DNA of 64,000 bases. Origin: a phage. The stretch is taken from sequence record OZ346189.1. The stretch is one strand, 5' to 3'. Below, piece by piece: positions 47,683 through 58,469 of the stretch. How positions within the stretch are numbered: position 1 is the stretch's first letter; the number at the start of each line of letters is the position of its first letter. The notes below the pieces were generated by a model. It saw only the letters and a list, made by a program, of their open reading frames with translations, had not been told where the DNA came from and made no database searches. The position numbers and the translations under genes were made by a program.

Positions 47683-47928
47683 ATGAACAAAGGGTGGACA
47701 TTTGTAGACGGCGTTGAAAACATGCCTCTAGGAAAGTATATTGTAGCCATGGCAGATGAGAATGGCAAGGTTGATTTCGGAGCTTGCGAGGTTGTTCTTG
47801 CAGGATCTGGTGACTATGCTCACAAAACTGGGATAATTAACGGTCATTTCTACTTTGATTACAACCCTGTTGTGGCGTATATGGCTATGCCAGAGTTCGA
47901 GCTCCCAAAGGAGGGTGCGGATGTTTAA
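47683..47928 (+). CDS. small protein, paralogue family 2
   Basis: 81 aa; MPLGKYIVAMADENGKVDFG; RBS caggagata. Confidence 0.45.
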   Translation: MNKGWTFVDGVENMPLGKYIVAMADENGKVDFGACEVVLAGSGDYAHKTGIINGHFYFDYNPVVAYMAMPEFELPKEGADV

Positions 47929-48118
47929 GCTTAAATCTGCATGGAACATCGCTGTGGGGGACGAGATCCGCATCCCAGGTGGAAAGACCATTATGAAGAT
48001 ATCTCGTATCGAGTACGAAGGTGATCGTGTATTTCATATCTTTGCAGAAGATGGTCGAGAAATTTATATACAGGCAGGCTCTCACATCTATATTCGTAAG
48101 AAAGGGGACGACAAATGA
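47924..48118 (+). CDS. small protein
   Basis: ATG 47924 behind RBS ggagggtg (track ORF starts at 47855). Confidence 0.4.
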   Translation, partial: FKLKSAWNIAVGDEIRIPGGKTIMKISRIEYEGDRVFHIFAEDGREIYIQAGSHIYIRKKGDDK

Positions 48119-48444
48119 CAGAGATCATCATTTCAACTGCAGGGTATGTGTTCCTGACAATCATTGCACTGACCATTTTGGTGGTGGTATATGGAATTGT
48201 TATTCTCCCTATTCTTGAGACAATTAGTTTGTGTCGGTGTTGGAGAAAGGCTTACGGTCCACAGCCGTGGAAGGACTGGCCCCACCTGGTGCACATAGCG
48301 TTCTCTTATGCTTATGATCACGCCAGCAGTGCATGCATAACCGGGTATCACGCCCACAACTGGAGCTGGGAAGGGTTGAGGAAATGGAATGTTACAAAGA
48401 CCATACCTCTGCGCATGTACAAACCTAAAAACAAAGACAGCTGA
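48115..48444 (+). CDS. small membrane protein
   Basis: 109 aa with hydrophobic N-terminal helix (YVFLTIIALTILVVVYGIVILPIL). Confidence 0.45.
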   Translation: MTEIIISTAGYVFLTIIALTILVVVYGIVILPILETISLCRCWRKAYGPQPWKDWPHLVHIAFSYAYDHASSACITGYHAHNWSWEGLRKWNVTKTIPLRMYKPKNKDS

Positions 48445-48473
48445 TACTTGAAAATCCCTGGCATATCAAGTGT

Positions 48474-48510
48474 AAGGAGGATTTCTAAAATGGATTTCCT
48501 CCTTTTGATA
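48474..48510 (+). terminator. terminator-like hairpin
   Basis: aaggagg / cctcctt inverted repeat followed by ttgatattt. Confidence 0.35.
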
Positions 48511-49047
48511 TTTCACCGGGCCAGATATTTTAAAATTCTTAGAAAATCAGAAAATGGATCGAAAACTAAAATGGATTTTTCAAGACAGGCACGATAAGAT
48601 GTGCTGCTCATTCTATCGTTCGCACCGTACTTTAAGTCACTATTCCAGATTTTTCCGCACATACTCTCACCCTTCTACCAGAACTTTCCCAGCTTACCTC
48701 TGACCTTTTATAACAATAAGTCCATTATTATCAGAAAGTTTCGGCACATCTCTTTCGGTACTCGATCTGTTTTTCATTTCAAAGACCTGATTTTCTGAAA
48801 ATTTTTCTCGATAAATTTCTTAGTACTCGATCTGTTTTTCGTTTTCTGAATCGGATTTTCTGGAAATCGTTCCAGCCCTCGACCTGAAATTTTTGGGGAC
48901 GAAATCGATTTTTCGTTTTCAGAAATGGATTTTTAAAATTTCTATATGGGAATATTTTATGGGATACTGTTTTATAGGAAATTGTTACGGAGGGTAATTA
49001 GCATGCTAATTAAATTTATTAAATGCGAGGAGTTCTCATTTAGAATT

Positions 49048-49066
49048 TTGAATGATAATCATTCTC
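49048..49066. promoter_or_regulatory. Fur-box-like palindrome 1
   Basis: ttgAATGATAATCATTcTC: 12-nt core ATGATAATCATT identical to the Fur consensus GATAATGATAATCATTATC core, about 15/19 overall. Confidence 0.35.
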
Positions 49067-49140
49067 GTTTGCAGAATAACGGGCAGGCCCGGTGATTGTC
49101 TCCCGGCCCCTGTTGCCCCGGCTTGTTATTATAGTATCAC
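49049..49140. repeat. direct repeat unit R1
   Basis: aatgataat..ttctcgtttgcag...tgattgtctccc shared with R2. Confidence 0.4.
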
Positions 49141-49178
49141 ACAGGACAAAGAAAGCAAGGATTTTTTGCATAAATTTT

Positions 49179-49280
49179 TAAATGATAATGATAACCGTTC
49201 TCATTTTATGCAGCGCCCATCCCCGGTGGTTGTCTCCCCCGTCACCGGTGCCTGCCGTCCTTTCGATAGGTATATTGTGC
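49179..49280. repeat. direct repeat unit R2
   Basis: aatgataatgataaccgttctcattttatgcag...ggttgtctccc, imperfect copy of R1. Confidence 0.4.
49184..49202. promoter_or_regulatory. Fur-box-like palindrome 2
   Basis: GATAATGATAAcCgTTcTC: about 16/19 to the Fur consensus. Confidence 0.35.
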
Positions 49281-49640
49281 CACCTGGCGGGGCCGCTGTC
49301 AACACTTCTTCAAAAATTTTTTCTAACATAATGCACCAACCGCTGCAACCTGGCGGGGCCAGCCTGGCAGGACCTGACTGACCAGGTAGGAGAGAGTGAA
49401 AACTTGCAAACCTGGTAGGCCTATGCTACAGGGCAGGTAACAATTGAAGAGGAGGTACAAAAATGAAAAGTAATATAATCCCCTGGAAAATGTAGCGATC
49501 AACGCCGCTGAAGTTATCACCCTGGTTGAAAAGGCTATGGCGGGAGCGTTGGAACATAAAGAAGAGTACGAAAAATGATGGTTAACCTGGCAGGGGCGGC
49601 GGCTGGAGAATTCTTCCCAAAAAATAATTCTAACTAATGG

Positions 49641-49668
49641 TTGACAGCTCGGAGAGTTCTGTTATTCT
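49641..49668 (+). promoter_or_regulatory. sigma70-like promoter
   Basis: ttgaca-N16-tattct about 55 nt upstream of 49722. Confidence 0.5.
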
Positions 49669-49721
49669 TATCCTCGCAAGGTGAACAACACCACACTAAT
49701 TAACAGAGAGGATAAAAAATC

Positions 49722-49919
49722 ATGAACGCCTACGGAATTAAAGTACGTCGCAACACTCACCAGGCCGTCACCGATCAAATGGTTTGCCAGGTGGACGTAA
49801 CCATCAACAACGGGCAAGGCCTTTATAAATTCCGTCGCGGTCAGAGCTATACCCGGCAACAGCTTAATCGTTGCGCCCTGACAAAAGGCCAGATCAACCA
49901 CTGGTTTAATAAAAAATAA
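49722..49919 (+). CDS. small basic protein
   Basis: 65 aa, RBS agagaggat. Confidence 0.45.
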   Translation: MNAYGIKVRRNTHQAVTDQMVCQVDVTINNGQGLYKFRRGQSYTRQQLNRCALTKGQINHWFNKK

Positions 49920-49922
49920 GTA

Positions 49923-49951
49923 TTGACATATAGTCTGACACCAAATACACT
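49923..49951 (+). promoter_or_regulatory. sigma70-like promoter
   Basis: ttgaca-N17-tacact. Confidence 0.5.
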
Positions 49952-49983
49952 AAAAGCACAAAAGACACTAAGAGGATAAAATC

Positions 49984-50382
49984 ATGAAAACCACTACCTT
50001 TAATTTTGATAATGCGGACTTTTCTTTTTCTGATGTCAAGAACTGCCGCCGGGATCGTGGATTTTACAAGGCTTATAATCTGGTGGGCCTGGACGATGAC
50101 AATAATTTGCACGAAGTAGCTGAGATCCGGTATTATGCCGCCGCCAGCGGGAACACTCAATACTGCGTTTTTTGGATTCACGACAACAAGAACAATAAGT
50201 ACGGTTATACTGGCGGGAAGGCGAGCGGTCACGGTTACGATAAAGCTAATGCAGCACTTGAGAGCGCATTAAATGCTATGGGGATCACTGCCAACGGCTG
50301 GATCTATGAAGAAGAGTTTTTGTCGGCACTTGCTGACCACCTGGGCTATAAAAAGCACATTGTAACATGCGCCCACGAATAA
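49984..50382 (+). CDS. hypothetical protein
   Basis: 132 aa, RBS taagaggat. Confidence 0.5.
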   Translation: MKTTTFNFDNADFSFSDVKNCRRDRGFYKAYNLVGLDDDNNLHEVAEIRYYAAASGNTQYCVFWIHDNKNNKYGYTGGKASGHGYDKANAALESALNAMGITANGWIYEEEFLSALADHLGYKKHIVTCAHE

Positions 50383-50388
50383 AAATTG

Positions 50389-50445
50389 TTGACACGCTGC
50401 AAAATTCAAGTAAACTAGTCACAAAAGGCGGGAATGTTTCCCGCC
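50389..50445 (+). promoter_or_regulatory. sigma70-like promoter plus 5'-terminal stem-loop
   Basis: ttgaca-N16-taaact, then hairpin ggcgggaatgtttcccgcc (50427..50445) at the predicted transcript 5' end. Confidence 0.5.
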
Positions 50446-50464
50446 AACACAAAGGAAAAAGATC

Positions 50465-50869
50465 ATGAATAAGAACGTACGCCGCATCATGAACGAACTG
50501 GCAAACGATGAAAAAATTATTGACATGCATTTGATCAACATTTGCCGCCGTTGTGTAACATATAACAACCGCGCCGCAAAAGCGCGTGAGATGAACGCAA
50601 AAGGCACCTTAAAGCCATTCCAGGTGGTGGTAAAGGCCATTAAAGATGTAGCTAATACGGCAAACCAGGTACAGGGGAACACCAACGAGAGTACCAATAT
50701 TGATCCGGCTTACATCATGAAACGGATCCGGACCTGCAAGAACAAAGAGCAAGTGTATAATGTCATAGACTGGTTGGATTCTATGGGCGATGTGGTGTAC
50801 AATAGATTCTCGGCAGCTATTGAGATCCAGCTTGACAGGTTAGACGGTAAAGTACTTAAAACTTACTAA
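50465..50869 (+). CDS. hypothetical protein
   Basis: 134 aa, RBS aaaggaaaaag. Confidence 0.5.
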   Translation: MNKNVRRIMNELANDEKIIDMHLINICRRCVTYNNRAAKAREMNAKGTLKPFQVVVKAIKDVANTANQVQGNTNESTNIDPAYIMKRIRTCKNKEQVYNVIDWLDSMGDVVYNRFSAAIEIQLDRLDGKVLKTY

Positions 50870-55026: not shown

Positions 55027-55227
55027 ATGAGCAACAATATCCGCGTTATTAACTTCAAAAAAGAAGAAAAAATTGCCGTGCTGATTGACGGTCAAGAAAT
55101 CTTCAAGGGCGACTATGAAGATCATCAAACGGCGATTAGTATCACTCGCGTGATTGGTTATCATAATTTCTACCCCCAAGGCGCTGAGGCAGCAGTTAAA
55201 CGAATCAAAGAGATTGTAGGCCTGTAA
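55027..55227 (+). CDS. hypothetical protein
   Basis: 66 aa, RBS aaaggagaaac. Confidence 0.45.
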   Translation: MSNNIRVINFKKEEKIAVLIDGQEIFKGDYEDHQTAISITRVIGYHNFYPQGAEAAVKRIKEIVGL

Positions 55228-55277
55228 AATTTATTTTTAGATGGCCTTGACTTCAGGGCCATCGATAAAGTAAATTT
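55228..55277. repeat. conserved intergenic hairpin element, copy 3
   Basis: aatttatttttagatggccttgacttcagggccatcgataaagtaaattt. Confidence 0.6.
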
Positions 55278-55320
55278 AAACCCTGTTAAAATACCACGCA
55301 GTTAACAAGGAGTGATAGAC

Positions 55321-55620
55321 ATGTTTATCCAGGCTAATAATCTTTATTTCTTTGATGGTCAGATCGTAGATGGTGTGGAAGTGGAGATCACCGGGTGCCC
55401 TGGCGGTCAGGCTATGACTTTTCGGAATAATGCCTTTGATGATTCTCATATCGTTATGAGAATGGAAGTTACGAAGCTGGACGACAAGAAAACACTTATT
55501 GACTATTCTGTGAAAGATCATCCAGACTACCGCATGATCCATGGTGATTTGTGCATTGTTGACCGTGACAAGGTGGGCGGCATTGTGATCGCTATTGTGA
55601 ACGATGTTTTCTCAAACTAA
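55321..55620 (+). CDS. hypothetical protein
   Basis: ATG 55321 behind RBS aaggagtga. Confidence 0.45.
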   Translation: MFIQANNLYFFDGQIVDGVEVEITGCPGGQAMTFRNNAFDDSHIVMRMEVTKLDDKKTLIDYSVKDHPDYRMIHGDLCIVDRDKVGGIVIAIVNDVFSN

Positions 55621-55637
55621 TTTCAGCAGGCGATTTT

Positions 55638-55988
55638 ATGAAAGTCAAACTATATTACCTTAATGAGCTTAACCCCCTTGCCCAGGTCCGCGCCCTAGCT
55701 AATACCTTGATTTGTGAGAAATCTGTATATTGTGTTGAGCTTAACGCCATGCGTGAACGTCTCAAAGGTGGTTACTTTGACATCCATGCTGCAATCAACG
55801 GCCTGAATATGGAATTTATACGCTTACGTAACAGCCGCCGGAATCTGGCAAGAATGGAACAAGATCCGGCCCACCTTCGTAAGCTGGTTATTGAAAATCA
55901 TCTGATGTTTAATGCCGAGGGTGATTATTACCATTTTCACCGCAAACGCTGGTACCGTGGCGGCAATACAGGCAAGAATGCAAAATAA
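55638..55988 (+). CDS. hypothetical basic protein
   Basis: 116-aa ORF. Confidence 0.45.
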   Translation: MKVKLYYLNELNPLAQVRALANTLICEKSVYCVELNAMRERLKGGYFDIHAAINGLNMEFIRLRNSRRNLARMEQDPAHLRKLVIENHLMFNAEGDYYHFHRKRWYRGGNTGKNAK

Positions 55989-56019
55989 GGCCCCTAGCAG
56001 GGCCTGCAGCAATATAATC

Positions 56020-56055
56020 ACATAAAGGCCATGCGGTTGCATGGCCTTTATTATT
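56020..56055 (+). terminator. rho-independent terminator
   Basis: aaaggccatgcggttgcatggcctttattatttt. Confidence 0.6.
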
Positions 56056-56190
56056 TTGGCGTTACAACGGCATACGGGGCGCTTAAAAAATTTTTAAAGA
56101 AGTACTTGCATCATTCCCGACAATATGGATAATAAGAGTTGTCGAGGGGGAGGCCCCCAATCGTTGACCAGATAGATAGGAGTTAAAATC

Positions 56191-56475
56191 ATGGCTATTG
56201 TTACCGCTGGCGATGTAGTAGAAATGGAAGCAAAATACTTAAAAGCGGGTATGCACATCCTACGGAATGATCAAGAGTTATTATTAACGATGGTTGACTA
56301 TAATCACGGCCAGGATTATCCAAGCATCGACTACTTTTTTGAGTATGTTGATGAAGAGTTGAAAGAGGATGAGGCCTATTGCGGTGAGTTCTGCAACTTC
56401 TTTTGTCCTGATGAGGTTGTAAAGGTTATTTATCAACCTGGCGTAGCTTTCCCGCTGCACGCTATCAATAAATAA
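56191..56475 (+). CDS. hypothetical acidic protein
   Basis: 94 aa, RBS taggagtta; preceded by hairpin gggggaggccccc. Confidence 0.45.
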   Translation: MAIVTAGDVVEMEAKYLKAGMHILRNDQELLLTMVDYNHGQDYPSIDYFFEYVDEELKEDEAYCGEFCNFFCPDEVVKVIYQPGVAFPLHAINK

Positions 56476-58138: not shown

Positions 58139-58273
58139 TGAGAAAGATAATTATTACCATGGGGATCGTGGCGGCAATGTTGGCGATCTTTCCCTTTATG
58201 GTTAGGTATGTGCTGATTAATGTTGTCCTGGTAGTCAGCGATCTGGTGTTATATATTAACTCATTGTTTTAGG
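58139..58273 (+). CDS. small hydrophobic peptide (44 aa)
   Basis: below track cut-off; two hydrophobic stretches. Confidence 0.3.
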
Positions 58274-58469
58274 CGCGATAATGACAGCGGAAGAAGTTAA
58301 AAAAAGTACTGGCGGTACTGCGTTATCATAATCATTGCAAGGTGAAGAATGATCCTGATTATCTTGATTCATCCCTTGAAGAGGATACACTACAAGCCAT
58401 AAGCAACATGCAAGAATTGCTTAAGCGTATGACAGAGAAAAACCGACCGGACTACATAGGGGGTAAAAT

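Follow-up and report, generated by a model that had tools for sequence, protein, structure and literature searches.

Fur boxes are textbook elements of bacterial chromosomes, and to our knowledge their only known place on phage DNA is upstream of cargo genes of prophages, for example stx1 and sitABCD; the stx1 gene of H-19B is one such gene preceded by a Fur box. The wiring of a lytic phage to a nutrient-sensing regulator of its host has a parallel in the Pho boxes of cyanophages, through which host PhoB controls phage phosphate genes. Among prophages, sitABCD of the lambdoid group is a documented case of a Fur box on phage DNA (PMC6969025). Here we examine two Fur-box-like palindromes, box 1 at 49048-49066 and box 2 at 49184-49202, in a 64,000-nucleotide stretch of phage DNA from sequence record OZ346189.1; this whole stretch is referred to as the window. 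The window is Vequintavirus DNA, from the rV5-like lytic myoviruses of E. coli whose genomes measure ∼137 kb. An earlier reading of the letters alone, referred to as the original prediction, had noted both palindromes, had described each as heading a ∼90-bp direct repeat, and had taken them to suggest two related, possibly iron-responsive, transcription units or small RNAs.

The boxes resemble chromosomal Fur boxes of E. coli (fhuA, fecI, ryhB, fepA-fes) in matching the consensus at 15-16 of 19 positions, in their score range, in their 6-bp registers and in the position of box 1 over a candidate -35 element and spacer. They differ from the chromosomal boxes in belonging to a strictly virulent phage, in lying where there are no genes and where no iron-related gene follows, in forming arrays with a 29-bp period in related phages and in being more nearly perfect palindromes. 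With the cargo boxes of temperate phages they would share the character of host Fur operators on phage DNA. However, the boxes of stx1 and sitABCD precede lysogenic-conversion genes that serve the host, whereas those of the window belong to a lytic phage, have no cargo gene, stand in the phage's own control region and recur in at least nine genera. The original prediction had cited prophage toxin promoters as a precedent, but the situation is a different one, since here the phage is strictly virulent and no cargo gene follows the boxes in their gene-free control region. The cyanophage Pho boxes likewise differ in controlling identifiable auxiliary metabolic genes. There is also a likeness to the injection-stop (iss) region of T5-like phages, which is untranslated, highly conserved, carried by virulent coliphages and contains the same 21-bp palindrome, but which belongs to an unrelated phage family and is located in the terminal repeat. 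Our literature searches (Fur and lytic phages, rV5 elements, Vequintavirinae transcriptomes, T5 and Fur) returned no earlier description of Fur boxes in the control regions of lytic phages.

The two palindromes and host Fur operators

The 19-mer of box 1, TTGAATGATAATCATTCTC, matches the Fur consensus GATAATGATAATCATTATC at 15 of 19 positions, and that of box 2, GATAATGATAACCGTTCTC, at 16 of 19, the best match in the window. The original prediction had the coordinates and sequences of both sites exactly right, and its estimate of about 16/19 for the second is the value we obtained. Over both strands of the 64-kb window the boxes are the two top-scoring loci, with a coding-region site at 58140 tying box 1 at 15/19. 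Against 200 first-order Markov simulations of the window, four matches of at least 15/19 were observed where 0.32 were expected, and one of at least 16/19 where 0.025 were expected. Each box is a 21-bp palindrome of the family consensus RAATGAKAATCATTCTCRTTT, with a 7-1-7 core of the form TGAKAAT-C-ATTCTCR. The dyad organization of a Fur operator (a 7-1-7 arrangement or at least three GATAAT-like hexamers) is present, and each box scores in two registers 6 bp apart. Box 2 is kept in phage WalterGehring as GATAATGATAATCGTTCTC. A degenerate relic of a third box stands exactly 29 bp upstream of box 1, which is the period of the family's arrays, and scores less than 9 bits on the E. coli Fur matrix described next.

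Since published Fur ChIP-exo tables give peak coordinates without site sequences, we built this matrix from promoter regions, taking the best site from each of 11 classical Fur-controlled intergenic regions of strain MG1655 (fhuA, fepA-fes, fepD-entS, fepB-entC, cirA, ryhB, fiu, fhuE, exbB, fecI and tonB). Position-weight-matrix scoring, a check proposed with the original prediction, gave 16.1 bits at 49048, 15.5 bits at 49054 and 20.1 bits at 49184, compared with 10.4-19.7 bits for the training sites (8.2-17.0 bits when each was left out in turn); box 2 exceeds every training site. Both boxes thus combine a match to the consensus with a matrix score at the level of validated operators. The next-best scores in the window, 14.7 bits at 58140-58158 and 13.6 bits at 55920-55938, fall inside open reading frames (ORFs); these two 19-mers and a further Fur-like one at 58345-58363 (12.3 bits), all within or at the start of ORFs, are probably chance matches.

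Individual host operators are closely similar to the phage sites. The E. coli fhuA promoter carries ATAATAATCATTCTCGTTTAC, in which 17 of 18 bases are the same as in box 1, and the fecI site is identical to the core of box 2 at 15 of 16 positions. A search for host-derived sequence with an 81-nt query against 5,426 E. coli genomes yielded one insignificant match; because short matches cannot reach significance in a collection of that size, the fhuA region was compared directly. We also searched one genome from each of 185,579 bacterial species (596 Gb) for the perfect 21-mer and found 107 exact matches where ∼0.3 were expected. The 149 ORFs that start beside these matches include 12 for ZnuA-type binding proteins, 11 for iron-type solute-binding proteins, 8 with TonB Plug domains, 7 of the FUR family, 6 for ECF sigma factors, 4 for siderophore oxygenases, 3 each for FeoA, ferritin and rubrerythrin, and 2 for FeoB. 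The motif therefore marks genes of iron and metal homeostasis in bacteria, and this position of the perfect palindrome identifies it as a Fur-family operator. The likeness to fhuA and fecI, the matrix scores, the bacterial context and the scores of related phages' boxes (14-20 bits on the same matrix) together give strong in silico support to the Fur-box interpretation of the original prediction, and we think it quite probable that host Fur binds the boxes.

We considered whether the boxes might instead serve as operators for a dimeric DNA-binding protein of the phage itself, one with no relation to Fur, their likeness to Fur sites being coincidental. Palindrome arrays of fixed period do resemble the operators of phage repressors, and the phage consensus favours GAGAAT where the textbook Fur consensus has GATAAT. 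However, genuine Fur sites of E. coli often have GAGAAT half-sites too: GAGAAT/ATTCTC, the usual phage variant, is present in those of ryhB, fecI, fepB-entC, fhuE, exbB and fhuA. In addition, across bacterial phyla the perfect palindrome accompanies iron and metal genes, autoregulated ones of the fur family among them, and it is common to the unrelated rV5-like and T5-like families, in the latter within first-step-transfer DNA that acts before phage proteins exist. Nor is there a conserved candidate gene nearby; in some other genera small leftward ORFs adjoin the element, but they fall into three families unrelated to one another, and the window has none of them. We regard this explanation as highly improbable. 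A phage-encoded Fur was also rejected as the binder. In tblastn searches with E. coli Fur (the query sequence is supported by its 99.3% identity to a Salmonella-derived fragment), no Fur homologue was found in Vequintavirinae or Stephanstirmvirinae records, comprising rV5-like and phAPEC8-like genomes, and none of the 34 phage records that did match is rV5-like. Because neither a Fur homologue in these phage records nor a conserved neighbouring regulator gene was found, the binder is probably a host factor.

Conservation, candidate promoters and repeat units

The region around the boxes (48400-49720) is matched at 80-95% identity by 122 phage records, nearly all of them Vequintavirus, and a 321-bp query over both copies of the repeat (49020-49340) is covered to at least 80% in 113 phage records. 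Outside the genus, distant blastn matches are confined to the first box and the core that follows it (49022-49120; ∼72-88% identity), the surrounding DNA not being alignable; the genera so identified are Phapecoctavirus, Seunavirus, Mydovirus, Certrevirus, Henunavirus, Avunavirus and the Aeromonas phage genus Plateaulakevirus. The palindrome is kept in the same non-coding gap in at least nine phage genera, and hosts of the genera that carry it are Escherichia, Salmonella, Klebsiella, Enterobacter, Cronobacter, Pectobacterium, Erwinia and Aeromonas. In each of the 12 related loci we compared, the element occupies the syntenic gene-poor gap. It forms arrays of one to four boxes, with neighbouring copies 29 bp apart in 15 of 17 cases; SSE121, Hena1 and Av-05 have one box only. 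The box core is invariant over 12 sequences from 9 genera, and the other columns invariant between genera are TTG before the box (usually GTTGAAT), GAAT three bases after it (usually GCAGAAT), GGCA and CGGTG.TTGT. Half-site variants in related phages, such as GATAAT opposite GCGAAT, are non-compensatory, which argues that the palindrome is a DNA site for a dimeric protein and not an RNA hairpin.

Box 1 occupies the -35 and spacer of a candidate rightward promoter, TTGAAT-18-CAGAAT; if this reading is right, the arrangement is the one classically seen where Fur represses a promoter. In the blocks (G)TTGAAT and nnAGAAT the pair of hexamers is kept at a fixed distance around the last box in the cross-genus alignment, and the GTTGA before that box resembles the -35 TGTTGAC in the early-promoter consensus of Certrevirus (PMC7344957). 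A candidate leftward promoter faces the box 1 promoter from ∼50 bp further right and has better-spaced equivalents at the same place in other genera (TTGCAA-17-TATATT and TTGATC-16-TATTAT). The predicted leftward promoter of the second unit is the joint-best promoter-like match in 47800-50600, at 10/12 plus a TG extension.

The direct repeat headed by the boxes is real, but it is looser, and shorter than the ∼90 bp first ascribed to it; its well-conserved part runs only from the box to TGTCTCCC (49048-49104 versus 49184-49238, ∼55-57 nt). Past this point the similarity is weaker and ends after another ∼40-50 nt, near 49140 and 49290; pairwise alignment of the two copies shows 75% mean column identity with several indels. 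The copies are offset by 136 bp at the box and by 134 bp at the core CCCGGTGRTTGTCTCCC (repeat families D6 and D8), a difference of 2 nt. Copy 2 has one additional GATAAT hexamer compared with copy 1 and therefore contains two overlapping registers 6 bp apart. The proposal of two related units was borne out in that each box heads a GC-rich segment of ∼85 bp whose right end is closed by a leftward sigma-70-type promoter. The conserved core CGGTGNTTGTCTCC within these segments occurs exactly twice in the window, and the GC-rich segment is conserved between genera as blocks of sequence, without conserved pairing. By its sequence, copy 2 is a Vequintavirus-specific duplicate of unit 1, in which a stronger, double-register predicted Fur site faces a strong candidate leftward promoter.

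We give about an even chance to the possibility that the boxes are host-Fur operators that make transcription of the control region iron-dependent. Both palindromes would serve as operators for the host's iron-loaded Fur repressor within a central non-coding control region. The promoter at box 1, weak and of early type, would fire rightward into the GC-rich segment of ∼85 bp and meet the leftward promoter head-on. In the presence of iron, Fur-Fe2+ on the boxes would shut the rightward promoter and would probably also obstruct polymerases coming from the right; in its absence the boxes would be clear and both promoters free, and convergent transcription over the segment would change. The phage would thus tie something in this region to the iron status of its host, most likely early-region or origin-region transcription, because iteron-like repeats adjoin the boxes. 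Several observations weigh against such a switch. The rightward hexamer pair is weak (8/12 to consensus, and for that reason not listed by our promoter scan), its -10 lacks the key A in a few relatives (CGGAAT in locus L253, GCGAAC in an Aeromonas phage), and no convincing rightward -10 is found at box 2. There is no RNA structure between the convergent promoters, and up to four boxes upstream of a promoter are more than simple repression needs. Finally, the core is present in the Pseudomonas phage PAK_P4, described below, without a Fur box, so that its role would be independent of Fur.

The alternative of small RNAs offered by the original prediction, under which each box-headed repeat would encode a short structured RNA acting in trans, gained no support. 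Promoter-like hexamers flank both units, rV5-like phages do express intergenic non-coding RNA (for example the pseudo-ToxI of phage TE), and in other genera an element of ∼100 nt at the position of copy 2 folds like a terminated small RNA. The units themselves, however, had no Rfam match at E values up to 1, either in the window region or in seven related loci. RNAalifold of 15 sequences gave no consensus structure or covariation on either strand (3-4 pairs, about -1 kcal/mol), and single-sequence folds were no more stable than shuffles on both strands (z-scores -2.2 to +1.3, most near 0). No terminator-like site was found within 49040-49300, and a rightward promoter is plausible at box 1 only. 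Neither a conserved structure or curated family nor a promoter paired with an intrinsic terminator thus marks the units. Lacking an Rfam match, structure and terminator, the reading as two small RNAs is unsupported and we consider it very unlikely. Protein-coding potential was rejected as well: some records annotate ORFs across the units (49052-49381 on the + strand and 49040-49171 on the - strand), and these are not supported, because the cross-genus alignments hold 1- and 2-nt indels and the frames are not kept.

The ∼100-nt element of other genera (CTACCGGCGATCCACC...GCCCCGCCTTTTCGCCGTGGGGTGGCGTTTCCTCTTCT; L003:1647-1754, L007:1672-1779, L011:1645-1752 and equivalents) is absent from the window. 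The fold predicted for its + strand comprises two hairpins, G-U pairs and a U-rich tail; a TTGCAA-17-TACAAA promoter precedes the element, which is a candidate phage small RNA without an Rfam match.

Box arrays in unrelated phages and a possible titration of Fur

The perfect palindrome AAATGAGAAT[C/G]ATTCTCATTT occurs 121 times in 2.9 million viral contigs, on 118 stretches and in 77 distinct flank contexts, of which 75 lie outside long ORFs and 21 have more boxes within 250 bp (loci L015-L134 and L291 onwards). By comparison, the whole 596 Gb of bacterial genomes gave only 107 matches. The viral neighbours are small phage genes. Most of the 61 ORFs beside these viral palindromes have no match, and the few that do are of phage type (SprT-like, proteases, sigma factors, a Tad2-like domain and phage families of unknown function). 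No iron-uptake family was found among the 61, the opposite of the bacterial context. The largest viral cluster, with 16 members, consists of T5-like phages, in which the terminal-repeat region contains 4-9 boxes in ∼600 bp that score 13-22 bits and are spaced 29, 35 and 23 bp apart. A GC-rich contig with two boxes (L106) had no match among isolated phages. In a published account of the T5 terminal-repeat region DnaA boxes are proposed, while the palindromes and DRD repeats described there are left without an explanation; Fur is not named as a binding protein in the retrieved portion of its text (bioRxiv 10.1101/866236).

These arrays bear on what we see as the main rival to an iron-dependent promoter, namely that the boxes have no role in cis and act as a decoy or sponge. 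Hundreds of genome copies, each with 2-4 sites that surpass most host sites in strength, would titrate Fur off host operators. Host iron uptake and the RyhB iron-sparing response would thereby be turned on, to the benefit of phage enzymes that need iron, ribonucleotide reductases among them. As a sponge would favour, the scores of the phage sites equal or exceed those of the best sites in the host, and the phage sites form arrays in which most members have no associated -10. Similar arrays, of 4-9 boxes per terminal repeat, occupy an untranslated region in T5-like phages, and the 77 viral contexts are nearly all outside long ORFs with none beside iron genes. In the classical Fur titration assay (Stojiljkovic, Baumler and Hantke, 1994), one Fur box carried by a multicopy plasmid reportedly suffices to derepress fhuF-lacZ. 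A further point in favour of titration is that PAK_P4, a virulent and distantly related phage, strongly induces host siderophore and haem-uptake genes on infection (PMC5563952).

Comparison with PAK_P4 (KC862300; L288/L289) removes this last support. Its positions 55069-56056 form a syntenic 1-kb non-coding gap with iteron-like repeats, including four GGRACYGGRCAGATTTTT repeats at the position equivalent to the iteron-like block of the window, and with a GC-rich core like that of the window (CGGTGTTTATCTCCGG at 55877); RNA-seq annotation places the leftward RNA as16 and its promoter in this gap. No Fur box was found in PAK_P4: the best 21-mer has 5 mismatches, and a single site reaches at least 11 bits in 93 kb. 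PAK_P4, alone among the related phages in being known to induce iron genes of its host, therefore does so in another way, and we rejected it as a precedent for a sponge. It looks as if the Fur boxes were added in the lineage that infects enterobacteria and Aeromonas. Moreover, several genera have a single box (SSE121, Hena1 and Av-05), which would make a poor sponge, and a decoy has no need of the precise and conserved placement of the last box, with a -35-like hexamer on one side and a -10-like hexamer on the other. The site numbers are 2 (plus 1 relic) in the window and 1-4 in its relatives as against 4-9 in T5-like phages, with the last box tied to promoter-like hexamers. On balance we consider titration unlikely as the explanation of the boxes. 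It is a tentative, and somewhat doubtful, generalization that virulent phages of unrelated lineages (rV5-like phages of at least nine genera, T5-like phages and dozens of uncultured ones) carry near-perfect predicted Fur-operator arrays in order to sense iron or to strip the host of Fur.

The non-coding gap and its biological meaning

The boxes lie in an ORF-poor gap between rightward small genes that shows 91-94% identity over more than 100 Vequintavirus genomes (Table 1). On the genome map of rV5 the corresponding stretch is labelled only "non-coding", without a function, and the replication origin could not be located in that study, skew analysis having given none (PMC3606486). Iteron-like units spaced 65 and 74 bp apart fill the left half of the gap, where a GGATTT(T) motif recurs, and other genera have similar blocks of repeats to the left of their boxes. 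This block may be a replication origin: clustered direct repeats by AT-rich DNA in a conserved non-coding region, the hallmark of iteron origins, are found in this neighbouring DNA and not in the boxes themselves.

It is in this setting that the boxes could be an architectural part of a replication origin or of an origin-activating transcription unit, with Fur borrowed, in the manner of IHF, Fis or DnaA at other origins, as a host factor that would shape the DNA or gate the transcription by which the origin opens. The gap has the iteron-like repeats directly to the left, AT-rich stretches and flanking promoters, and the order of repeats, GC-rich core and early promoters, together with the leftward RNA as16, is kept in PAK_P4. 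The origin of rV5 was left unplaced by skew analysis (PMC3606486), and a 29-bp period corresponds to 2.76 helical turns, which would wind bound dimers round the helix. On the other hand, GC skew shows no switch at the gap beyond a local dip, and the layout is also present in PAK_P4, which has no Fur boxes, so that Fur is no inherent part of this layout. We judge an architectural role to be quite unlikely.

Table 1. Coordinates of the boxes, promoters and repeats in the window, and of box arrays in T5-like phages
Feature	Position	Strand	Details
ORF-poor gap	48445..49721	.	1.28 kb between rightward small genes (ORF list)
Iteron-like direct repeats	48482..48933	+	three 47-50-nt units at 48748, 48813 and 48887; repeat families D1-D3, D5
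Degenerate relic box	49021..49041	.	AAATGCGAGGAGTTCTCATTT; 16/21 to palindrome consensus
Candidate rightward sigma-70 promoter	49048..49077	+	TTGAAT (49048-49053), 18-bp spacer, CAGAAT (49072-49077); read from sequence
Predicted Fur box 1	49050..49070	.	21-bp palindrome GAATGATAATCATTCTCGTTT
GC-rich segment, copy 1	49078..49127	.	conserved core CGGTGATTGTCTCC at 49090-49103
Candidate leftward promoter, unit 1	49128..49158	-	TTGCTT (49158-49153), 19-bp spacer, TATAAT (49133-49128); predicted from sequence
Predicted Fur box 2	49180..49206	.	TAATGATAACCGTTCTCATTT (49186-49206) and overlapping register 49180-49200
GC-rich segment, copy 2	49207..49273	.	core CGGTGGTTGTCTCC at 49224-49237
Predicted leftward sigma-70 promoter, unit 2	49274..49302	-	TTGACA-17-CACAAT with TG extension (49302 to 49274)
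ACCTGGCRGGGC repeat cluster	49282..49596	+	five copies right of unit 2; repeat families D4, D9
T5-like box arrays	L032 3158-3675; L295 6368-6983; L326 1125-1752; L309 3481-4050		chee24, DT57C/DT571-2, VSe12

To the right of unit 2, ACCTGGCRGGGC is repeated; the window has 17 matches to it where 5.1 are expected, 5 of them within the cluster, and it may be a phage-specific regulatory motif. Two further copies, at 56436 and 56476, lie at another gene boundary. A one-base difference (CCCC versus CCCCC) interrupts a small gene at 49464-49577, which has a strong ribosome-binding site, and leaves an ORF of 10 codons; the counterpart of this gene in phage WalterGehring, bas51_0105, has 59 amino acids. 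The rightward small genes right of the gap are each preceded by a strong sigma-70 promoter (TTGACA at 49641, 49923 and 50389).

The two boxes thus belong to a familiar class of element but stand in a setting new for it, and a general significance is plausible; their sequence suggests that the phage reads, or soaks up, the iron regulator of its host. If Fur does bind them, a function would be assigned to a region called only non-coding in the rV5 paper, and phage development or host takeover would be linked to iron. Should the arrays of the unrelated lineages act likewise, Fur would be a general host factor in lytic phage development, and the long-unexplained palindromes of the T5 injection-stop region could be explained. 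The rV5-like and phAPEC8-like phages, strictly lytic and often isolated with therapy in view, share the boxes as a conserved feature. They are meant to act in the gut and in infected tissue, where no nutrient is withheld more tightly than iron, and such a link could affect their efficacy.

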